From: a virus
Taxonomy: Duplodnaviria; Caudoviricetes
Virus record (IMG/VR): IMGVR_UViG_3300031539_000172
Coordinates: 1 to 32,778 of that record
Strand: one strand, 5' to 3'
Length of the DNA: 32,778 bases
Within the stretch, counting starts at the first letter, position 1. Each line of letters begins with the position of its first letter. Below are positions 1 to 20,696 of the stretch, one piece after another. Position numbers and translations under genes: made by a program. The notes under the pieces were generated by a model. That model saw only the letters and a list, made by a program, of their open reading frames with translations, was not told the DNA's origin and made no database searches.

Positions 1-177
1 GATACGGCGGGTTCCTGGGGATCAACGGGAACGAACCAGCGTCACTATCTGACGCGTGTGTTTTATCGGACCCTTTCAGCGCAGTCCTACACGTTCACGC
101 TGGACTACAACGCTGAGTTTGGGGGCAACGAGGCGTCCATTTGGGATGCCTCCATGACCCTCTGGAGGATGAGCTAA
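1..177 (+). CDS. 3' end of a beta-rich putative virion/fibre protein (partial)
   Basis: Frame 1 is open from base 1 (DTAGSWGST...YTFTLDYNAEFGGNEASIWDASMTLWRMS) to TAA at 175-177, just before the next ATG at 179. Confidence 0.6.
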   Translation, partial: DTAGSWGSTGTNQRHYLTRVFYRTLSAQSYTFTLDYNAEFGGNEASIWDASMTLWRMS

Positions 178-178
178 A

Positions 179-1282
179 ATGGCCGCTACCAACTACACGT
201 ACAGCGTTGCAACGGATACCGCGAACGCCAAAGTTCATCCTAAGAGTCTCGATCAAGAGATCCGTGCGTCGGCCATTGTCATCGCACTCGAGGGTGTGGG
301 CCAGAGCCTCGACGTTCTCACGATCACGATGAAGGATGCCCTTTCCACGGGCGATGAAACGATCCTCGATGGGGTGATCGCCGCTCACCAGGGGACCGTG
401 GCTGTCAACCTTCCACTCCCTACAAATCGAAAAGGTGTTCCAATCGTGATGAACGATTGGCGTGCGGGGACGCCAACGGATTTCATCACGTTTAACTGGT
501 GCGACAAGACGACGTGGTTCGGAGATGCCGCTCGCGTGACGGATGAGGCACTCTCTGACTCAGGGGATGGTTTGACGTGGAACTCGGCGCAGACCTTTTG
601 GATCTGCGTCACCTGCGGGAAAATCCCCCAAGAGCACCGTCTCACCGAAACGCATGGGACGATCATCAAAGTCGATTCCGCGACGATGACGGAGAACCCT
701 CAAGGGACTACGGACGGGGACTACTCCGTCAACTACGACACAGGGGATGTGACATTCAACGCGAGTCAAGCGGGCAAGACGGTCGAAGCGACTTACAGCT
801 ACGCTGTGACCTCCACCATCTACATCACGCCTGATGCGACTAGGACGCTCCGGCTGACGGCGGTTGAGGTGCAGTTCTCGGACGACATCGACCTTACGGA
901 CTCGGTGCAATTCGACATCGAGGGCTACATTCACGCGTTCGTCCCCGGGATTACGGTGGACGACGTGACCCCCAACTACACGACTTCGTTCCCGACCGGG
1001 TTTCGCATTCCGTTGGGTTCTCCTCGTATCTACAAGACCATGATGGACTTCATCGCGGAAGCCCAACGCGCGTACCCCATGATCCCGGCGCTCGGAGGGG
1101 CCTCGTGGCGCGGTCTCATCAAGCCCGTCTATGTGATGCGTTGGCCTTACCAAGAGGACGCAACTCGCGACCTCGTGGCCGACATGGGGATGCGGATCAG
1201 GATCAAACTCCAAAACGACATTCCGTTCGGTGGCACCCATGCCATCGCCACCCTCTACGCTGTTTCCACGAACGGCTCATAA
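179..1282 (+). CDS. Putative virion structural protein (367 aa)
   Basis: Thr/Asp-rich beta protein containing DYSVNYDTGDVTF...VEATYSY, a motif type that recurs in the tail proteins here. Its N-terminal ~75 aa are paralogous to those of 1292..1894. Confidence 0.6.
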   Translation: MAATNYTYSVATDTANAKVHPKSLDQEIRASAIVIALEGVGQSLDVLTITMKDALSTGDETILDGVIAAHQGTVAVNLPLPTNRKGVPIVMNDWRAGTPTDFITFNWCDKTTWFGDAARVTDEALSDSGDGLTWNSAQTFWICVTCGKIPQEHRLTETHGTIIKVDSATMTENPQGTTDGDYSVNYDTGDVTFNASQAGKTVEATYSYAVTSTIYITPDATRTLRLTAVEVQFSDDIDLTDSVQFDIEGYIHAFVPGITVDDVTPNYTTSFPTGFRIPLGSPRIYKTMMDFIAEAQRAYPMIPALGGASWRGLIKPVYVMRWPYQEDATRDLVADMGMRIRIKLQNDIPFGGTHAIATLYAVSTNGS

Positions 1283-7506: not shown

Positions 7507-8523
7507 ATGACCGAAGAACTTGAAGTTTCAACCCTGGGTGTGGGTCTCGACATGGGCACGATGAACATCGTGGCCGCGAGGCGGTCCCAAAAGGGAGTGG
7601 TCACCAATCGTATCCGCGATGCTTTCCATGTCCTGCCTCGTGAGAACAAGAAGATGCTCCGGCTCTCAGGTGTGAACTACATCGAGAAGGAGGAGGATCT
7701 CATCGTCGTCGGTGATGCGGCCTACGACATGGCGAACATGATGAGCCAAGAGGTTCGTCGTCCGCTCCAGTCGGGACTCATCGCCGCCGGAGAGATTGAT
7801 GCGCTCGACATTCTCGGTGTGCTCGTCAAGCACGTCCTCGGAGATCCAAAGGAAGACAACGAGATCTGCTACTTCTCGGTGCCTGCGGCTCCGGTGGATG
7901 ACCTGTCTCGGGACATTGTCTACCACCGTGGTGTTCTTGAACGCATCGTCACGGAGTGCGGCTACAAGGCATACCCAAGCAACGAAGCGCTGGCCATCAT
8001 CTACTCCGAGTGCGCCAAGGATGCGTTCTCTGGGATTTCGTTCTCCTTCGGCTCAGGCATGACGAACGTGGCGCTCGCCATCAACACCATCGAAGGTCTG
8101 AGCTTCTCGGTGGCTCGAGGTGGAGACTGGATCGATCACGGCGCAGCGAAGTCCACCGGCTCCACGCAAGCACGCATGTGTTCGTTGAAGGAGAAGGGGC
8201 TCAACTTGGTGAACCCGACCGACCGGGACCAGGAAGCGCTGTGCGTCTACTACAAGGCTCTGATCGAGTACGCCATCGACAACGTGGCGACGGAGTTCAA
8301 GAAGATCCAGAACAAGTTCTCGTTGCCCAAGGCGATTCCCATCGTGGTGTCCGGCGGAACGAGCAAGGCTGGTGGTTTTCTTGAGTTTTTCACGCAGGTG
8401 TTCAACGAAAAGAAGCGAAGGTTCCCGATCGAGGTCTCCGAGATTCGTGCGGCCAGGGAGCCTTTGGACGCCGTAGCACGCGGTCTTCTCGTACAAGCCC
8501 TGCAAGAGTACGAGGATGAGTAA
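7507..8523 (+). CDS. Actin-like ATPase (MreB/MamK superfamily, volactin-like)
   Basis: Phosphate-1 GLDMGTMNI, NEALA, phosphate-2 SFGSGMTN, RGGDWID, adenosine VVSGGTS, connect-2 AVARG. Confidence 0.9.
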   Translation: MTEELEVSTLGVGLDMGTMNIVAARRSQKGVVTNRIRDAFHVLPRENKKMLRLSGVNYIEKEEDLIVVGDAAYDMANMMSQEVRRPLQSGLIAAGEIDALDILGVLVKHVLGDPKEDNEICYFSVPAAPVDDLSRDIVYHRGVLERIVTECGYKAYPSNEALAIIYSECAKDAFSGISFSFGSGMTNVALAINTIEGLSFSVARGGDWIDHGAAKSTGSTQARMCSLKEKGLNLVNPTDRDQEALCVYYKALIEYAIDNVATEFKKIQNKFSLPKAIPIVVSGGTSKAGGFLEFFTQVFNEKKRRFPIEVSEIRAAREPLDAVARGLLVQALQEYEDE

Positions 8524-9574
8524 GTCCGACGGAATGTCCCTCTGGACGGAGACGAAGACAGATCTGTCGTTCACTCCTGACCTTGAGGGCTACCAACCCG
8601 TCGTTTCCTTCAGCGGTGGCAAGGACTCGGTGGCGACGGCGCTCGTACTGCGCGAGCACGGCATCGAGGCAAGGCATGTCTTCGCCGACACGGGATGGGA
8701 AGCCGACTCAACCGTCGATTACGTGCATGAGATCTCTGAGAAGCTCGGCCTCAACGTCGAGGTCGTCGGAACCACCCCTCCTGTGCTCGAGCCTTGGGCT
8801 GAGGAACTCATCGAGGCTGCGGAGAAAAGGCTCGGTCGGAAGTTCGGCGCGCTCCCTCGAGGGATGCTGCATCGTGGAGGCTCCCCTCTGCGCATTGGGC
8901 GGTGGTGCACGATCGAGTACAAGCTGCGTCCCATCAAGAACTTCCACCTCAAGGTGCAAGAGGAGACGGAGCTCGACACGATCAACGTCATCGGTGTCCG
9001 CGCCGAAGAGAGCGTCTCGAGAGCGCAGAAGGAGCGGTGGTATTTCGACGACCAATGGGACGGCCAGATGTGGCTGCCCATCCATCATTGGCGTACCGAT
9101 GACGTGCTCCGCATCCACCAGCGCCACGACATCCCCGTGAACCCGCTCTACATGAAAGGGCACGACCGCGTGGGGTGCTACCCGTGCATCCTTGCGCGCA
9201 AAGATGAGATCGCCCTGATCGCCAGGCGGGCTCCTGAGCACATCGACATGGTGCGCGAGCTCGAGGGGTTGTTTCAGGCGATCAGGAGCCGACGCAACGA
9301 AGAGAAGCCCGGACGTTACGGCAAAGAGAACCCGGCCTTCTTCGAGGCGGTGATCGAGCGCAACAACTCCAAGGTTTCCGCGAAGATTGACGAAGTGGTG
9401 GATTGGGCCCGAACCGACCGAAAAGGCAAGAAGGTACGTTTGGCGCAGCTCCCTCCTGGTGGTGGCTGTTTCCGGTGGGGTCTTTGTGAAACCCACATCG
9501 AAGGAGAACCGGTAGACGAACGCGCCTCCATCGCTGCGACGCTGAATGAGGCGTTTGGGGGCGCTGAGGACTAA
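8516..9574 (+). CDS. PAPS reductase family (PP-loop) protein
   Basis: SFSGGKDS PP-loop, FADTGWE, RWCT..K..P, GVRAEES..R, NPLY..G..RVGCYPC. Confidence 0.9.
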   Translation: MSKSDGMSLWTETKTDLSFTPDLEGYQPVVSFSGGKDSVATALVLREHGIEARHVFADTGWEADSTVDYVHEISEKLGLNVEVVGTTPPVLEPWAEELIEAAEKRLGRKFGALPRGMLHRGGSPLRIGRWCTIEYKLRPIKNFHLKVQEETELDTINVIGVRAEESVSRAQKERWYFDDQWDGQMWLPIHHWRTDDVLRIHQRHDIPVNPLYMKGHDRVGCYPCILARKDEIALIARRAPEHIDMVRELEGLFQAIRSRRNEEKPGRYGKENPAFFEAVIERNNSKVSAKIDEVVDWARTDRKGKKVRLAQLPPGGGCFRWGLCETHIEGEPVDERASIAATLNEAFGGAED

Positions 9575-11663: not shown

Positions 11664-14600
11664 ATGGCCGATTTCCCAGGCAACATTTACTCGCCCCCAG
11701 GTGTCTACACCCGTACGCTGTTCAACTCCCCGGTTTCGGGAGTTCTCGCGGGTGTGCGCATTCCGGTCTTCATCGGAACGGGCAACGAACTTCTCCAACA
11801 GCAAGGTCTCGAGGTCATTCGTGGCTCGAGCTCGTCGGTGGACCAGCAGGTCCCCCAAGAGGATGAGACGGGCCGTGCCGTGGTCCAGATCTCCCAGACG
11901 GGTCAGGTCACCCTTGGTGACTTCAACGGAGAACGACGCCGTATCCAGGTCCGCAATTTCCCCATCACGAATGGGGACGGCAGCGGGACCATCGCTACAG
12001 ATCCCAGCTCGATCTTCGTGACGATCAATGGTCAGCCAGATGTCGTCCTGAGCGTGTCTCGCGCCGACATCGGTGTGATCGAGATCAGCACGGCCCCGGT
12101 TCTGGGTGACGAAGTGCGGATCACGTACTTCTTCAAGCGCACGGATACGCAGACCACCGACACCACCTCGGAGCAGACGACCCCGCAGTCGGCCATCCTC
12201 GACGGTGCCATCGGCAACCTCTACGAGTTCACCGCGGAGACCAACACCTTCACCGTCCGAGTGGACGATGACCAGAACCAAGAGATCACGGCGACGTTCC
12301 CCACGGGATCTGTCTCCGCGGCCACGGTCGTTTCGCTCATCAACGGAGCCGCGGCCGCCACCTCTTTGGTCGCTTCGACGTTCACGAACAACTTCGGGGA
12401 CACCGCCGTTCGTCTCGTCTCTGACCGCGATCTTCGCATCCTCGACGGCACTGCCAACGTGGTGCTCGGGTTCACCCAAGGTCAGGACACGAACCGCAAC
12501 AAGACCTACTTCACGTTCAACGGTCCCATCGTGGACGGCTCGAACGGAGGTATTGCCACCACCGACACCGCCAAGGTGACGGTGCGCGTCGCTGGTGTGC
12601 AGGTCATTCCGACCGAGGTCGACGGCCAGAACCGTGCCGTGACCCTCCCCTTCGCCCCCGGCGTCGGAGAGTCCGTCACCATTCAGTACTACTTCAACAC
12701 TTGGCAGGACACCTTCGACTACCTGGCGAACATCAACGTCACGGAAGTCCTGCGCTGTGGAATCGTCCCCGGCAACAACGACTTCATCGAAGGGGCTGAC
12801 TTCATCCTCAAGGATGACCTGATCGTGTGGGGAACTGCTTTTTTGGTGGCCCCTGGCGTTACGACTCCCGGAGCCCCGGCATTCGGCCCCACTCAGATCA
12901 GCGGCCTGTTGATCGACAACCGCTGGTTCCTTGCGTCCACGAATGTCGTGATCAATGACGCTGTGACGCCGCCCCTCGAGGATCGGACCAAGTTCCAGCT
13001 CCCCGCACAGCCCACCACGGGCAACGGACGCGACAACCCGCTTGGTCAAGATGCGTTCCTGAGCATCTCAAACAACCGACAGGACCTGCCGACCAACAAC
13101 CCCAATCTCGTCAAGGCGTACTGGGGCTTCGGGATGCAGGACGCGCTCCAGCGTGGTCCCGTCACGGTGACCGAGGTAGAAGGCACCATCATTACCCTCA
13201 AGAACCCGGTTCCTGTGGGCGCCGAGGTGTTCGCTACCTTCTGGTACAACATCCTCGTCGATGAGGAGTACACCGTCGAGGTTCAGACCTCGGGCCCCTC
13301 GGGCATCGGAACGTACTTCCTGTTCGACAGCAACGGGAACTCCATTTACACGCCGAAGTTTGGCGTGAAGGGTCCCGCCATGACCGGCGTGACCATTCAG
13401 TTCCCCTCGGGTTCTGAACTCACCCCCGACGTTCACTTCGAGGGAGCCACGCAAGGCCCCGTCGAGGAGACGGTCACCGTTTCGTTCGCGGACGAGGATT
13501 CCACGATCGGAAAGTTCACGGTTCCCGGAGCGGGCAGCTACGCATTCGTGAGCAGCGAGTCGGATCGCGCTCGATTCCTCATCGACAGCACGCCTCTCGC
13601 AGGCGGGGTCTCGGGAATCGATCTTTCGGCTCCTCACGGCATCCAAGGGCTCGGGTTCAACGCCAGCCTGCTCGGTGACGAGATCACCTACACGGACGAC
13701 TCGGGCAAGACCACCTACGACATCCTCTCGGGCATCAACGACAACGTGTCGATGTCCGTGGACAACGTGGTGCTCACGGTGCTCGTGCCTGGGCAGACCG
13801 GGGTGAACGCGGACGCTTACGTGGAGGCCATCAACGCCGACGCGAAGCTCGCGCTCAACAACCCGTACCTCGATGGTTCGACCCGGTTCCAAGGAACCAC
13901 TGTCATCACCGCGGGTGAGTACGACCAGCTCGTGTTCAACTATACGGGTGTCACGAACGGTTCGACGGGACCCGTCACGGCGACCATCGCACCGGGAACT
14001 TACCTGTCCCCGAACACCATCGCTGCCGCAGTCAACAGCGCACTCACCACGGCCATCGCGGCGCTGCCGGCTGCCTACGACGGCATCAACATGGTTTGCA
14101 CGGCCAACGTAGACGGTCAGATGCGCTTCACCATGACTGGTGCGGACACGGACCTCGGCACCTTCGCCACGGGCACCGTGACCACCGCGTTGTCGATCCT
14201 CAACGACACCATCACCATCGGGGGCATCACCCTTACCGGTGAACTGGGTCTCACTGCGGGTGGCCTCAACTACGACACCGGACAGGCTCGAGGGACCGTC
14301 ATCCCGACTGGCGTGCGCCCCGGCGACACGATCAGCATCGACACCACCGCTGTCGGCGGCGGTTTGGTGACTCTCACTGCAGCGGGTGCTCAAACCCCGG
14401 GTGGCCTCAACTTCAACGAGGGCACGCAGGCCACGGGCACCATCATGGTGGCCGGACCGATTCCGGGCGACACCTTCACGGTGGATGGCATCACCATCAC
14501 CGCGCTCGGGGCTCAGACCCCCGGTGGTCTGGACTTCGACGAGGGAACTCGTGCGACGGGCACTGCAACGTTGTCTGCCGTGCAATACGGCGACACCATC

Positions 14601-17600
14601 ACCATCGACACTTCGGCGGTGGGCGGTGGTCCTGTCATCCTGACGGCCAGCAACACGCTGACCCCGGGTGGTCTTGACTTCAATGTCGGAACCGCAGCCA
14701 CGGGTGACTTCATGCTGATGGGGGCGCGTCCGGCCACTCTTGCACCGTTCCCGGCCCTTCCTGCCGACACGGTGACCATCGGTGGTGCCGTCCTCACTCC
14801 TGTCGAAGGATTGCGTACCCCAGGTGCGGATGACTTCGATGCTGGTACTCGAGCCCTTGGATCGGTCGTTGTTGTCGCCGATTCATTGGCTCCGAGCACG
14901 GGTGTTCTCTACGGAGACACCATCACGATCGCGGGCATTGCTCTCACGGCGGACGATATGACCACTCCTGGTGGTCTGAACTTCGACGCAGGCACCCAAG
15001 CCACGGATCTCGTCAATGTGGCGCTTTCCCCGGCCATCGCGACCATCGTCATCGATGCGGCGCCTGCCAACGGCGGTCCTTTCCCCCTCGCAGCCGGCAC
15101 CGGAATTCCGGGAACCAACACCTACGATGGAACCCCGGCTTCGACGGCCGCCATTGCTGCGAACATCGCATCGGCGATCAATAACCCGGCGAATGCTTTC
15201 TCCACGTTCATGAGCGCGGCAGTGGGCCCCGGTCCGAACGATGTGACTCTGACTTGGACGGTTCCGGGTTCCTTCCCCAACGCGGTCATCACCACAACGA
15301 GTTCGGACGTTAGCGTGACTGTTGGTGGTGGTGCTGCAAGTGCGTTCGCCGGTGGTGTGGGTGACGAGATCACCACTGCGACGGCCATCGTTGCGGCCAT
15401 CACCGATACGCTCAACGGCCTCGGTGGCACCGTACAGGCTCATAACACGGGCGGTACCTCTGCAACCGTGGACATCCAAGCGCTCACTCCGGGCCTTGCA
15501 GGGAACTCCATCAGCACCGTTTCGACGGCGCCGGCGCGTCTCACTTGGGGCGCAGGCGTCTTGGGTGGTGGTCTTGGAGATGATAGCACCGCAGCGACCG
15601 ACGCATGTATGGCCATCGCGGACGGGTTGAACTCGTTCGACACGATTGTCACCTGCGTGGCGATCGGAAATCAGGTGGACCTCACTTCCGTCACTCCGGG
15701 AGCGGTGGGCAACCTGACCACTCTGAGCACGACGGCGGCAGGCCGCTTCGTTCTTTCGGGTGGGAGCCTGACCGGGGGTGTCGGCGACGACATCTCGGCA
15801 GCCACAAGCCTTGTGGCCGCCATCGGCGATGCTGCCAACGGTCTCGGTGGAGTTACCTCCGACAACGTTGGAGGTACCTCTGCGGTCGTCACCATCGACT
15901 CGTTCACTCCGGGCACTGTCGGGAACAGCATCACGATGGCAGAGTCCACCGGTGCTACTCGCGTTGTCCTGTCCGCAGGCACGTTGCTCGGTGGTTTGGG
16001 GGATGACACGACGGTTGCGGCCTCCATTGCGGCGGCCATCAACGATGCCGGCAACGGTATCGCGGCTACTGTCAGTGCCCTGTCGGCACTTGCTGTGGTC
16101 ACGATGACTGCGGTCACCCCCGGCAACATCGGCAACATCATCGATACGACAAGTTCCGACGGAACGCGTCTTCTCATGTCTGCACTGACCCTTCAAGGTG
16201 GTGTAGGCACGGATCTGTCGGTGGCGAGCTCCATCGCGGCTGCGATCAACGATCTCGGCAACGGTCTCGCAGTGGACATCAGCGCGGGCAACGGTGGTGG
16301 GACTTCCACGACGGTGACCGCATGGGCCGATGTGCCTGGCGTTTTGGCGAACGGCATTTTGCTCTCCTCGAGCACGGGCCCTCGCTTGCCGGTGTCGGGG
16401 GCTACCTTCGGCGGCGGTCTGACCGACGTTGGAGTGGCTACCACTATCGTCTCGGCCATCACGGACCCCCTCAATGGGCTCGACACTCTGGTCACGTCCG
16501 ACAACAGCTCGGGCACTTCTTCCACCGTGGACCTCACGGCGGCGGTGCCTGGACCGAGTGGGAACTTCATCGATCTGCTCTCGAGCAGCGCGGTGCGGCT
16601 CCTGACTTCCGCGGCTACTCTTACGGGTGGCTCGGGTCTCGGCGGCGGTGTGTTCGAGTTCCTCGATGCGGCTACGTTCGCAGAGGACTTCGCGGTGCTG
16701 GCAGGCATCTCAACGGACGTACTGCCGAGCCAAGAGCAGACCAAGGTCATCGACGGAGACATCGCTCGTCGCTTCACTGTGGCAGGCACCTCGGGTCGCC
16801 TGATCTACGACCGCATCCTTCTGCGCAACCGCATCGTGCCCGGCTCGGGCTCCATGCGGCCCGAGAGCCAGGTCGCTCAGACCCAGCTCGTCGTCGAGGG
16901 AACCAATGCCAAGTCTCAGACGGGACTGGCGGCCAAGGCCTTCGGTGAGGCCGACATTGAAGCCACGATCCGCGAGGCTTCACTCTTCGGTGAGGTTGGG
17001 TTCAAGGACGGCCAAGTGCCATCGGGAACCTACGGAGACAGCCGAGATGGTCAGCCGCAGGTGCAGTTCTACGGCGCCAATGGTCTGAACCCGCAGAACA
17101 ACGTGTTCAGGTTCAACATCGACGGATCGCCGGTGACGGTCGTGTTCACGGACGCGTCTGGAGTCGGTATTCCGGCAGCCGGAGAGGCACTCGTGCCGCT
17201 CGGTCCTGTGACGACCCCGAACACGGTGTTGCGTCAAATCCAAAACGCGGCTGTGGCGGCCGGTCTGAGCGCGAGCTCGGTGGCGCAGGAAGGCGCGGGC
17301 ATCCGTCTCGTGTCTGGCCTTGTGGATACCAACTCCGCGGTCACGATCAATCAGGCCAACGGCACTGATCTGCTCGGGTTCTCCGAGGGTGCCACGGCAA
17401 CTCGCAGCTTGGTGACCGTCGAGAAGGTCGCATCGGCTCTGATGATGCACCACAGCAGCAGCATCAACGGTGCGATGCTCGACTACCAGAGCCCGGACGC
17501 GACCTACTTCGCGGACCAGGCCTTGGCAGCCAAGGAAACGGACTCGGCGAACAACGAGTTCCTGTTCGTGCAGTCGCAAGCCAACAACGTCGTGGGTTTG

Positions 17601-19118
17601 GGGGCTTCCTCCAACGTGGCGTTCCTGGATGCCTCCACGGATTCTTGGCTCCGCACTGGCACTGGTCTCGGGGTTGCTCCCGGTGCCGCTGCTTCGGGCG
17701 AGACGGGCTTCCAAGGCTTCTACGTCACGAGCTCCGATCCTATCGATGGATCGGGTTCGTCCAACACCTCGTGTCTCAACGCGGGCGTTGGCCAGGACGG
17801 GCTGCTTGGTCAGACCTACCGCGACACCAAGACAGGCTTGGTCTTCACGGTCCTCGAGCGAGAGGGCGGTGCGGACTACCCGACGGGTGCCGGAGCATGG
17901 TTCACCTTCGAGGTGCGCAAGCTCGTCACGACGAATGCCAACCTCCCGGTCAACTCGATCCCGGGCCTCGAGCTGCTCGTGGCCAACACTGAGGGTTCGA
18001 CCATCCCGACCGGGGACACCGCAATTGTCGAGACCTTCGACCGTGGTGGCCAAGAGCCTCAGGTGGGTGACAGCTACTTTGTCACCTACAACTACTCCAA
18101 GACGGAAGCCGACTTCCAGACGCTGCTCTTCACCAACCAACGAGCGGTGGAGCGCAACTACGGCCAGATCAGCCCGGACAACCCGGTCTCTCTCGCAGCG
18201 TTCCTGGGCTTCCTGAACGGGGCTGTGGTCATCGCCATCAAGCAGGTGCCGAAGATCCCAGGCAGCAACCAAGCGAGCACGCCGGCTTATCTCGACGCGC
18301 TCCACGACCTGCGTGGGCCGCTTCCGGGCGGTGGAACGCTCGACACCATCACACCGCTCAAGGGTGATGATGTTGACCTGTTCCTTGCACTGAGCAATCA
18401 CTGCGATATTCAGTCGAGCATTCGCTTCCGAGCGGAGCGCACGGCGGTCATCGGAGTGGCCTCGGGCACGCAGCCGACGGACGTGGGAGGGATCGCTCAG
18501 CAGATCCAGAACACCCGCATGCGTTTGGTCTACCCGGACATCGTGACGCTCTCCGTTCAGGACGCGCTTGGCAACGACAAGCAGTTCTTGGTGGACGGCA
18601 CGTTCCTCGCGGCTGCGGTCGCGGGTGATCGCGCAAGCCCGAACATCGACGTGGCGACTCCGTGGACGCGGGCTCGTATTGTCGGGTTCGATCAGCTCGC
18701 GCGCAACTTGGATGCTGTCGAACAGAACCAAGTGGCTGTGCAGGGTGTCACTGTCCTCACACAGCGGGGAACGGTCATCCGAGTCCGTCAGGGGCTCACG
18801 ACCGACATGAGCAACATCCTCACGAAGCTCCCGACCGTGATTACGATCGCGGACGAGGTGCAGCGTTCCTCGAGGCGGGACCTCGACAGGTTCATCGGCA
18901 TCAAGTTCTTGCCGGGCGTCCTGTCGGAAATCGAGGGTCAGCTCTCTACCACGATGAAGGCGTTGAAGAACGCTGAGATCATCACGGCCTTCACCGGCAT
19001 CCAGGCGCGTACTACCAACGACCCCACGGTCGTCGAGGTCGAGGCGTTCTACCAGCCGGTGTTCCCGCTGCTGTACATCGTCATCACGTTCAACCTTCGG
19101 TCGAACCTGGGGGGTTAG
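11664..19118 (+). CDS. Giant contractile tail sheath protein (2484 aa)
   Basis: N-terminal YSPPGVYT...VFIGTG. C-terminal sheath domain (QGVTVL...VRQGLTTD...IADEV...LDRFIG...VEVEAFYQPVFPLLYIVITFNL). Upstream of tube and tape measure genes. Confidence 0.9.
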   Translation: MADFPGNIYSPPGVYTRTLFNSPVSGVLAGVRIPVFIGTGNELLQQQGLEVIRGSSSSVDQQVPQEDETGRAVVQISQTGQVTLGDFNGERRRIQVRNFPITNGDGSGTIATDPSSIFVTINGQPDVVLSVSRADIGVIEISTAPVLGDEVRITYFFKRTDTQTTDTTSEQTTPQSAILDGAIGNLYEFTAETNTFTVRVDDDQNQEITATFPTGSVSAATVVSLINGAAAATSLVASTFTNNFGDTAVRLVSDRDLRILDGTANVVLGFTQGQDTNRNKTYFTFNGPIVDGSNGGIATTDTAKVTVRVAGVQVIPTEVDGQNRAVTLPFAPGVGESVTIQYYFNTWQDTFDYLANINVTEVLRCGIVPGNNDFIEGADFILKDDLIVWGTAFLVAPGVTTPGAPAFGPTQISGLLIDNRWFLASTNVVINDAVTPPLEDRTKFQLPAQPTTGNGRDNPLGQDAFLSISNNRQDLPTNNPNLVKAYWGFGMQDALQRGPVTVTEVEGTIITLKNPVPVGAEVFATFWYNILVDEEYTVEVQTSGPSGIGTYFLFDSNGNSIYTPKFGVKGPAMTGVTIQFPSGSELTPDVHFEGATQGPVEETVTVSFADEDSTIGKFTVPGAGSYAFVSSESDRARFLIDSTPLAGGVSGIDLSAPHGIQGLGFNASLLGDEITYTDDSGKTTYDILSGINDNVSMSVDNVVLTVLVPGQTGVNADAYVEAINADAKLALNNPYLDGSTRFQGTTVITAGEYDQLVFNYTGVTNGSTGPVTATIAPGTYLSPNTIAAAVNSALTTAIAALPAAYDGINMVCTANVDGQMRFTMTGADTDLGTFATGTVTTALSILNDTITIGGITLTGELGLTAGGLNYDTGQARGTVIPTGVRPGDTISIDTTAVGGGLVTLTAAGAQTPGGLNFNEGTQATGTIMVAGPIPGDTFTVDGITITALGAQTPGGLDFDEGTRATGTATLSAVQYGDTITIDTSAVGGGPVILTASNTLTPGGLDFNVGTAATGDFMLMGARPATLAPFPALPADTVTIGGAVLTPVEGLRTPGADDFDAGTRALGSVVVVADSLAPSTGVLYGDTITIAGIALTADDMTTPGGLNFDAGTQATDLVNVALSPAIATIVIDAAPANGGPFPLAAGTGIPGTNTYDGTPASTAAIAANIASAINNPANAFSTFMSAAVGPGPNDVTLTWTVPGSFPNAVITTTSSDVSVTVGGGAASAFAGGVGDEITTATAIVAAITDTLNGLGGTVQAHNTGGTSATVDIQALTPGLAGNSISTVSTAPARLTWGAGVLGGGLGDDSTAATDACMAIADGLNSFDTIVTCVAIGNQVDLTSVTPGAVGNLTTLSTTAAGRFVLSGGSLTGGVGDDISAATSLVAAIGDAANGLGGVTSDNVGGTSAVVTIDSFTPGTVGNSITMAESTGATRVVLSAGTLLGGLGDDTTVAASIAAAINDAGNGIAATVSALSALAVVTMTAVTPGNIGNIIDTTSSDGTRLLMSALTLQGGVGTDLSVASSIAAAINDLGNGLAVDISAGNGGGTSTTVTAWADVPGVLANGILLSSSTGPRLPVSGATFGGGLTDVGVATTIVSAITDPLNGLDTLVTSDNSSGTSSTVDLTAAVPGPSGNFIDLLSSSAVRLLTSAATLTGGSGLGGGVFEFLDAATFAEDFAVLAGISTDVLPSQEQTKVIDGDIARRFTVAGTSGRLIYDRILLRNRIVPGSGSMRPESQVAQTQLVVEGTNAKSQTGLAAKAFGEADIEATIREASLFGEVGFKDGQVPSGTYGDSRDGQPQVQFYGANGLNPQNNVFRFNIDGSPVTVVFTDASGVGIPAAGEALVPLGPVTTPNTVLRQIQNAAVAAGLSASSVAQEGAGIRLVSGLVDTNSAVTINQANGTDLLGFSEGATATRSLVTVEKVASALMMHHSSSINGAMLDYQSPDATYFADQALAAKETDSANNEFLFVQSQANNVVGLGASSNVAFLDASTDSWLRTGTGLGVAPGAAASGETGFQGFYVTSSDPIDGSGSSNTSCLNAGVGQDGLLGQTYRDTKTGLVFTVLEREGGADYPTGAGAWFTFEVRKLVTTNANLPVNSIPGLELLVANTEGSTIPTGDTAIVETFDRGGQEPQVGDSYFVTYNYSKTEADFQTLLFTNQRAVERNYGQISPDNPVSLAAFLGFLNGAVVIAIKQVPKIPGSNQASTPAYLDALHDLRGPLPGGGTLDTITPLKGDDVDLFLALSNHCDIQSSIRFRAERTAVIGVASGTQPTDVGGIAQQIQNTRMRLVYPDIVTLSVQDALGNDKQFLVDGTFLAAAVAGDRASPNIDVATPWTRARIVGFDQLARNLDAVEQNQVAVQGVTVLTQRGTVIRVRQGLTTDMSNILTKLPTVITIADEVQRSSRRDLDRFIGIKFLPGVLSEIEGQLSTTMKALKNAEIITAFTGIQARTTNDPTVVEVEAFYQPVFPLLYIVITFNLRSNLGG
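14163..16631 (+). repeat. Protein-level 7+7 split-domain repeat array inside the sheath
   Basis: Seven ATG...GDT.TI...TPGGL.F..G units followed by seven GDD..A..I..AI.D..N...TPG..GN.I...L.GG units. Confidence 0.85.
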
Positions 19119-19212: not shown

Positions 19213-19611
19213 ATGAACAACATGTACGCAGGCTGGCACCTCATCTTTGATGGGGTTGTCGAACCGGGAGAGGCTTCGGAGCGCCTGGGGGACGTGGATT
19301 TCCTCAGGACGGCTTTTTTGGATCTCGTGGCCGGTGTGGGCATGGAGATCTTGGTGCCACCGGTGTTCAAGGTTGTGCCGTTGACCCCTGAGAATGCTTC
19401 AAGTGACCTTGAAGACGACGGGGGAGTCACCGGCACCTGCATCATCACGACGAGCCACATCAGCATCCACACTTGGCCTCTTCGTTCTCGCTTCGCGCTC
19501 GATGTCTTTTCGTGCAAGGAGTTCAACAGTGAGGCGGTCTCGGGCTTCCTCATGGATCGGTTCAATGTGAAGACACGATCGTTCCATTGGATCGTGAGAA
19601 ATTGGCCGTGA
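19213..19611 (+). CDS. speD: Pyruvoyl-dependent S-adenosylmethionine decarboxylase proenzyme homolog
   Basis: GWHLIFD, GGVTGTCIITTSHISIHTWP, ALDVFSCKEF. Confidence 0.85.
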   Translation: MNNMYAGWHLIFDGVVEPGEASERLGDVDFLRTAFLDLVAGVGMEILVPPVFKVVPLTPENASSDLEDDGGVTGTCIITTSHISIHTWPLRSRFALDVFSCKEFNSEAVSGFLMDRFNVKTRSFHWIVRNWP

Positions 19612-19901: not shown

Positions 19902-20696
19902 ATGGGCACCAACAACGATCTCAACCCCAGCAACGGCGTACAGGGCTCAAGCTACCTGTACGACTTCGGAACTTCTCCGCAGACGCGTACGGCCGTGAGT
20001 CAGAAGGTACGCCTGCTGACCCCGGCGTACGGTTCCGACGCGAATCTTCTCTTTCAGATGGGCGTCCTGAGCTCGTTCACGCCGAACGAGACCCGTACCA
20101 TCGACACGCTTCGTGGCATCGGCTTCGGCGACATGATCGCTGAGCTCGTGCCCTCCGTCACGGAGGCCATGACAGCCGGCTTCGAGCGCGCGCTCCTGTA
20201 CCTGTCCAACCTCTGGCAGGCCACGGGCTATGCCGGCGGTGTGAGCGGTCCTGTGCGGTCGCTGCGGCATCACAGGTGGCCCTTCGACATCGAGCAGCAG
20301 CTCGTGTTCTCGACTTTGGCAGACCGTGACCTCACGGGTCAGTCCGGCGTCGGATTCAACGGCGGCGGTGGCACCTTCGACGGTGGCGTCAAGGAAATCG
20401 TCTACCCGCAGGTCACGAACGACCCGAACAACAACCCCGGCGATCTTCGCGGCCACACCGCCATCATCACGCTGTACGAGACCTGCTGGTTCAACTCGTG
20501 GTCTTTGACCAACCTGAGCCGCGACACGGGCATGTTGATGGAGACGGGCGACGTCACCATCTCGGACGTGCACGATTTCAGCTCGGAGTACGGCGAGTTC
20601 CTGGCTACTGGCAACGATCCCACGATTGGTCAGGTGGGCTCGGTTCGTTTCAACGCGGGCGATCAGCGCGCGGCATCCGATTTCATCACGGTCTAA
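19902..20696 (+). CDS. Tail tube protein
   Basis: GVLSSFTPNETRTIDTLRGIG...ELVP...FER...PFDI...LYETCWFNSW..METGDVTISDV tube-fold pattern; GAGGAAGG RBS; follows the sheath. Confidence 0.8.
   Translation: MGTNNDLNPSNGVQGSSYLYDFGTSPQTRTAVSQKVRLLTPAYGSDANLLFQMGVLSSFTPNETRTIDTLRGIGFGDMIAELVPSVTEAMTAGFERALLYLSNLWQATGYAGGVSGPVRSLRHHRWPFDIEQQLVFSTLADRDLTGQSGVGFNGGGGTFDGGVKEIVYPQVTNDPNNNPGDLRGHTAIITLYETCWFNSWSLTNLSRDTGMLMETGDVTISDVHDFSSEYGEFLATGNDPTIGQVGSVRFNAGDQRAASDFITV

Follow-up and report, generated by a model that had tools for sequence, protein, structure and literature searches.

Contractile tail sheaths are known to carry additional domains that are inserted one into another. In T4 gp18 and the diffocin sheath CD1363, two to four unlike domains are described as following a 'Russian doll' organization (PMC6088184), and in the multi-domain sheaths classified as type 3 the extra domains are reported to lie on a chain that runs out and back, away from the tube, with more domains in jumbo phages and a total given as 'five and more' (PMC9230969). 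The present analysis concerns a 32,778-nucleotide stretch of viral DNA (Duplodnaviria; Caudoviricetes; positions 1 to 32,778 of IMG/VR record IMGVR_UViG_3300031539_000172, hereafter the window), in which an open reading frame at 11664..19118 (+ strand) encodes a giant contractile tail sheath protein of 2,484 amino acids (aa) and 253 kDa. As in the Russian-doll and type-3 sheaths, domain is predicted to be inserted within domain on a sheath core; unlike in those sheaths, one homologous domain is predicted to be nested seven deep, in a subunit of this exceptional length. The sheath stack, which an earlier, sequence-only reading of the window had proposed, is an extreme form of the known nested design, and it is real and well supported.

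The repeated domain has counterparts in the outer domains of other sheaths (D3 of ΦTE, D2 of Bas63, residues 91-186 of A-1(L), and those of Mu and Milano), with which, as these are described (PMC11972413, PMC12609058), it shares a seven-strand sandwich and a flanking helix (Z 7.6-10.9). In contrast to the ΦTE D3-type domain, which is single and contiguous, the domain in the window protein is split before the helix and predicted to be nested in itself, and the stack appears to lie within an insertion, at a depth of three levels or more, rather than directly in the core at the usual site. The fold is also matched by residues 104-225 of the flagellar cap protein FliD (Z 7.0-7.6).

Nesting of a domain in its own kind has been described in two other settings. 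In the flagellin of G. thiophilus, which is arranged on a helical filament, D5 is reported to be a duplicate of D4 placed in a D4 loop (PMC11532411); self-nesting there is two deep, unlike in the sheath protein, and the only VIA match to this flagellin (range 177-590, Z 4.8) does not establish that D4 and D5 share the fold of the sheath unit. The Si3 insertion of cyanobacterial RNA polymerase is described as containing eight sandwich-barrel hybrid motifs (SBHMs), four of them discontinuous, with a length of 150 Å for seven (PMC10895346, PMC13114784), and an ECOD survey of 2.7 million domains presents it, with six levels, as the most complex of the cases that it highlights (PMC13114784). Si3 and the sheath stack would have in common that one domain family is recursively nested into an elongated arm, with all domains of the predicted stack discontinuous except the innermost. 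Si3 differs in its unrelated fold, its intracellular location and its branched, six-level architecture, as compared with seven unbranched levels of the same type, and ~10 levels in total, predicted here. No publication on a seven-deep sheath stack was found in a literature search that covered few subscription papers and excluded supplements.

Seven first and seven second halves

Self-alignment of the sheath protein yields two sets of repeat diagonals, A with A and B with B, and hardly any similarity between A and B. The seven A units (residues 834-1156, nucleotides 14163-15131) measure 39-52 aa each and the seven B units (residues 1157-1656, nucleotides 15132-16631) 69-75 aa each, which bears out the order that had been noticed at 14163..16631, with all seven first halves ahead of the seven second halves. 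According to a DSSP assignment on an AlphaFold model, an A unit comprises about four strands and a B unit a helix plus three or four strands, and the full unit is one sheath-surface domain of ~115 residues, modeled as a β-sandwich that is split just before the helix. In order along the + strand, the first halves are A1 (14163..14282), A2 (14283..14426), A3 (14427..14549), A4 (14550..14693), A5 (14694..14849) and A6 (14850..14996). They are followed by the contiguous A7+B7 (14997..15356), the innermost or tip domain, which is of a distinct sequence type, and by the second halves B6 (15357..15572), B5 (15573..15779), B4 (15780..15995), B3 (15996..16202), B2 (16203..16418) and B1 (16419..16631). 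The tip unit is the least similar to the other units of the stack. Flanking the stack on the same strand are the two parts of a host domain (level 0) that holds the stack in its loop (N-part 13890..14162, C-part 16632..16754; boundaries approximate); in the model of a homolog that has no stack, L022, this host domain is contiguous at 318..437.

The stack accounts for 78 kDa of each sheath subunit and has an unusual composition, with no lysine, few aromatic residues, one cysteine and a net charge of -49, each level being net negative (-4 to -9). In 270 proteins, fixed-column profiles detect A units 562 times and B units 617 times, as opposed to 11 and 0 times, respectively, in the same proteins reversed, and the A/B repeats are therefore not a product of chance. 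Nor are they an assembly artefact, as is evident from the Logan contigs of four runs that may be source samples of the window: in two of the four the whole stack is contained in one contig with zero differences, in the other two it is covered by two overlapping contigs, and coverage depth is roughly even. Sequence searches of the PDB with the whole protein, a family profile or the tip domain returned no match, Pfam and PHROG provide no name for the stack region, and Foldseek gave no match to the stack model at E <= 0.001.

The alternation of long and short loops that had been pointed out does occur in this protein, yet it is not conserved, A3-A6 all being 41 aa long in 6 of 42 sequences. Growth by two-domain duplication, which the alternation had been taken to suggest, finds no backing either, since the paralogs show no clean even/odd pattern and both odd and even depths occur among related proteins.

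Pairing of the half-domains

The pairing of the halves was read from an AlphaFold model of residues 734-1700 as a monomer (alignment of 42 sequences; mean predicted local distance difference test score, pLDDT, 85.4, and ~90 over nearly all stack units), on which solved single domains were aligned with VIA and the first and last aligned residues recorded. Twenty of the 50 VIA rows cover A7+B7, for which residues 91-186 of the A-1(L) sheath give Z 10.7-10.9 with a root-mean-square deviation of ~2.1 Å over 93-94 residues; the only contiguous pair thus reads as one complete domain of the sheath-insertion type, as had been anticipated. Matches below A-1(L) are to ΦTE, Sf14, Milano, Bas63, Mu, T7-type tail proteins, FliD and flagellins, and also to T4 gp11. 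For the discontinuous levels, a single solved domain is aligned across the intervening chain: 13 rows pair A3 with B3 (model residues ~187..783), nine pair A2 with B2 (140..855) and two weak rows pair A6 with B6 (329..572), while four rows span the host domain (1-13..949-961) and two its N-terminal half. Parallel pairing of A and B units fits none of the 50 rows, and a second VIA run gave the same pattern. Given the short links between units, exclusion yields the partners at levels 1, 4 and 5, A1 being assigned to B1 also through co-divergence, and A4 and A5 presumably pairing with B4 and B5. Separately, in PDB entries 9d93 (chain M, Bxb1 tail tip, 328-567) and 6iwy (107-436) the fold also seems to be interrupted by an insertion.

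Also informative is the co-divergence of A and B units across 42 sequences, calculated after removal of the shared phylogenetic signal. The nested order A1..A7-B7..B1 ranks first among all 5,040 possible pairings and the parallel order 3,776th, these ranks being descriptive rather than p-values on account of the relatedness of the sequences. Six sequence subsets place the nested order at ranks 1, 1, 16, 1, 1 and 2, and in 200 half-samples it ranks first 93 times and within the top ten 196 times. A3 and B3 show the highest co-divergence (r 0.73-0.82). When a different statistic is applied to these data, the nested order again comes first (1 of 5,040, and 1 of 720 when the contiguous level is omitted); without that level, nested partners correlate at r 0.40, as compared with -0.09 and -0.13 for units that are neighbors in the DNA. 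Similarly, the paralog identity matrices of the A and B units correlate at r 0.80-0.90 in the nested order and near zero in the parallel order.

Several observations weigh against this pairing, in addition to the descriptive nature of the ranks. Aligned ranges report end residues only, the direct read-out covers levels 2, 3, 6 and 7, and both rows at level 6 are weak and derive from unrelated proteins (Z 4.6-4.8). In the first co-divergence test A5 and A6 favor an adjacent B unit, and in the second A1 and B1 correlate at r 0.00. Furthermore, at a predicted TM-score (pTM) of 0.51 a straight rod is no more than one possible shape of the arm. With these points taken into account, the nested pairing proposed in the sequence-only reading is predicted with high confidence, the model ranges and the sequence tests both pointing to it.

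The sheath core and the site of insertion

Assignment of the protein as a contractile tail sheath rests on its C-terminal part. While the whole protein has no match in Pfam, residues 2100-2484 match Phage_sheath_1 (E 3.4e-5, 24.2 bits against a cut-off of 31.4) and then Phage_sheath_1C (E 0.0035, 17.8 bits against a cut-off of 26.9), both below threshold and in the correct order, and reach a score of 0.97 with a sheath cluster of the ESM Atlas. A tblastn search with residues 2050-2484 finds annotated sheaths in 226 phage records, among them those of Tunturi_5 (E 2e-35) and phage G (gp178, E 1e-27). The core fold was judged from L022, which is 60% identical and whose last 1,200 residues were modeled (pLDDT 74); the top 24 VIA rows for this model are all chains of contractile tails or injection systems (Z 14.6-8.3). 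On this basis the open reading frame 11664-19118 encodes a contractile tail sheath. Relatives are found on viral contigs of up to 619 kb, and the source is accordingly an uncultured huge phage.

In the L022 model, the sheath core restarts at residue 860, equivalent to residue ~2149 of the window protein, and residues 860..1087 align with solved sheaths from their residues 36-49 onward (Z up to 14.6); the C-terminal part of the conserved core accordingly corresponds to 18108..19118 (+ strand). It appears that ~2,100 residues are inserted in a single N-terminal loop of the core, and that this large insertion leaves the core near residue 45 instead of at the usual outer-domain site. Single-domain matches in the same model span 141..800, 196..732 and 318..437, from which the host domain would lie at least three levels within the sheath core and the tip ~10 levels deep in all. 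The remainder of the insertion (window 11800-13900 and 16750-18100) likewise runs out and back in the L022 model, through further FliD/FlgL-like domains.

Depth of the stack among sheath homologs

Unit strings were counted in the best 120 of 805 sheath homologs, the window protein included. Exactly seven A and seven B units were found in 42, one of each in 15 and no unit in 57; the remaining six, five with a B unit only and one with an A unit only, are taken to be weakly detected single domains. Three length classes are likewise seen in the host loop of 19 aligned sheaths, which measures 15-18 aa in seven, 122-142 aa in eight and 802-844 aa in four. A search with the stack as query, covering proteins of 1,366-4,347 aa, retrieved 44 carriers, all of them 2,420-2,489 aa long and seven deep, at 47-100% identity. 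These equal counts of the two halves are in line with what the sequence-only reading had expected of homologs. No sheath with a depth of 2-6 was present among the 120 best homologs or the 44 stack carriers, and by these unit counts the host loop of the sheath switches between 0, 1 and 7 domains. The suggestion that arm length is tuned by nesting depth does not hold for sheaths, given that all 44 carriers are seven deep.

Exchange of the loop content is indicated by phylogeny. On a tree built from the last 780 residues, three changes are needed to account for the seven-deep state, and a single seven-deep clade is rejected (approximately unbiased test, p-AU 3e-38; 13 vs 9 rows). Homolog P0018, which carries one divergent domain, has both flanks within the seven-deep clade, and P0121, a seven-deep protein on a separate branch, has both flanks nearer to one-domain sheaths; the content of the loop thus appears to be swapped as a whole cassette. 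Ortholog identity per stack level is 0.56-0.70 versus 0.76 for the sheath core, and paralogs are at 0.3-0.5.

The same module in other proteins

Outside the sheaths, iterated profiles drifted over the A/B border, and units were therefore counted with fixed-column profiles. Among 150 representatives, these give 62 AB, 20 AABB, 10 ABAB, two A3B3, one A4B4 and one A7B7 string, with 54 mixed or incomplete, and among a further 105 proteins 25 AABB, 17 AB, 16 A3B3, seven ABAB, two A4B4, one A5B5 and one A7B7, with 36 mixed. One protein, P0154, has a 6+6 arrangement (by eye and by iterated-profile count). An apparent A/B mismatch in P0147 resolves to 4+4 with short A units, and inspection by eye shows a mixed nested and tandem form in P0303 and a different domain in the loop of P0192. 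Judged by their unit strings, other, smaller proteins carry the module at depths of 1-6.

A family of small proteins (P0122, P0123, P0126, P0127, P0272, P0274-P0277 and L043) has 0, 2, 3 or 4 levels; between its 4-deep stack and the stacks of sheaths, identity is 51-55%. Pairs within this family that differ in depth have longest contigs of equal size, suggestive of paralogs in one genome; the small 2-deep protein was not encountered when viral contigs were scanned for it. In the five closest small nested proteins (P0122, P0123, P0124, P0126 and P0127), the innermost unit matches A7/B7 best, which identifies tip and spacer as separate types. A further arrangement is seen in P0128, P0130, P0237, P0190, P0176 and P0202, where first strands of ~15 aa come in a series and are followed by a series of ~100-aa remainders (by eye, P0128 has about nine of both), a pattern that suggests nesting at a second loop. 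P0125, P0139 and P0206 are fusions of the module with methyltransferase-like and superoxide-dismutase domains.

Neighboring genes

A conserved 264-aa gene (19902..20696, + strand), with counterparts of 63-97% identity in 18 of 33 related loci, is likely to encode the tail tube, judging by position only; it has no Pfam or PHROG match. In the 33 related loci the genes downstream of the sheath are conserved and of sizes that fit tail genes, none being named by Pfam or PHROG. An S-adenosylmethionine (AdoMet) decarboxylase gene (19213-19611, + strand) lies between the sheath and the likely tube gene, and is present in 12 of the 33 loci at a varying position. The head-tail region contains a Volactin-like actin homolog (7507-8523, + strand; Pfam PF25216, E 1e-74), and a gene of the 3'-phosphoadenosine-5'-phosphosulfate (PAPS) reductase family is found at 8516-9574 (+ strand).

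Possible function of the arm

In the proposed architecture, the chain would leave each β-sandwich by the loop before the helix and return to finish the domain, with neighboring domains joined by two strands. The arm would extend from the far end of a branch that is itself nested and, as a reasonable inference, point outward; the homologous ΦTE domain is described as outward-facing and dispensable for contraction (PMC11972413). The sheath arm, too, would be unnecessary for contraction. If straight, it may be ~25 nm long, as estimated from domain sizes. Nesting depth would be hard to alter because A and B halves must be gained or lost together, and a fixed seven-fold depth need not signify a ruler, since a change in depth takes two matched events.

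We lean toward a reading in which the seven nested sheath-surface domains probably form an out-and-back spacer arm on each subunit, with a distinct tip held off the tail for weak accessory contacts. Adhesion has been hypothesized for additional sheath domains (PMC9230969). If the domains are nested, the arms may together act as a coat of bristles in multivalent accessory binding, though this is somewhat doubtful. Against an accessory-contact function, the acidic, lysine-free and aromatic-poor stack does not suggest a sugar-binding surface, and the tip is not more conserved (0.56) than the spacers (0.57-0.70). Such a contact spacer nevertheless remains our best guess, ahead of fiber docking and of an outer coat.

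That the arm keeps retracted tail fibers or whiskers docked some way out from a very thick sheath is unlikely, although the homologous single domain is described as contacting fibers in ΦTE, A-1(L) and Bas63 (PMC11972413, PMC12609058) and the fold recurs in T4 gp11 and T7-type tail proteins. A thick sheath is indeed expected: on the phage G lattice (PMC8570332), a sheath of this mass would have to measure at least 24 nm across when extended and 37 nm when contracted, or ~44 nm and ~65 nm, respectively, at phage G's own fill. However, 57 of the 120 best homologs have an otherwise similar sheath and no such unit, no fiber partner was identified, and small proteins other than sheaths bear the same type of tip. 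That the arms of adjacent subunits pack together as an outer coat, making the tail stiffer or shielding it, is decidedly unlikely. Each level does keep its own identity between orthologs as compared with paralogs, outer domains are reported to dimerize in G. thiophilus flagella (PMC11532411), and the homologous domain is reported to cross-link the Milano sheath (PMC11972413); yet levels that are all net negative disfavor packing without cations, and the stack offers a single cysteine.

The idea of a nearly neutral repeat expansion in a tolerant surface loop, stuck at seven because depth is hard to alter, draws on the dispensability of the stack in the family, with P0018 bearing one divergent domain amid the seven-deep clade, and on stack conservation below that of the core. 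We regard it as improbable, as the stack burdens each of probably hundreds of subunits and is nonetheless intact in all 44 carriers, as well as recurring in the separate branch of P0121. Highly improbable is the absence of nesting within the chain, whereby A and B runs would fold separately, pair in parallel or pair between subunits. The model is of a monomer only, and co-divergence is blind to whether pairing is within or between chains; even so, the model ranges and three sequence tests favor Ai with Bi, the AnBn pattern is also found in small proteins (n = 1-5), and A units alone would be half a sandwich.

Implications

Viewed across proteins, the domain may serve huge-phage virions as a telescoping module of general use, a proposition to which we give an even chance: it would nest in itself at one loop (depth 1-7) and at a second loop (about nine), keep a dedicated tip innermost and move among structural proteins as a cassette, the sheath chain being unbranched and about ten insertions deep and the tail bearing hundreds of double-tethered arms of roughly 25 nm or less. 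If the nesting is true, it is deeper than the published cases found (two in flagellin, six in Si3). Recursive lengthening of this kind goes beyond one-step tandem duplication because both halves must be added together, and, with several host proteins together providing a natural series of depths from 1 to 7, the origin of recursive insertion becomes open to direct test. Protein spacers could usefully be modeled on a rod in which two strands tie each domain to the next, and the phage itself would have an unusual, very thick or bristled tail, recognizable in environmental electron cryo-microscopy.

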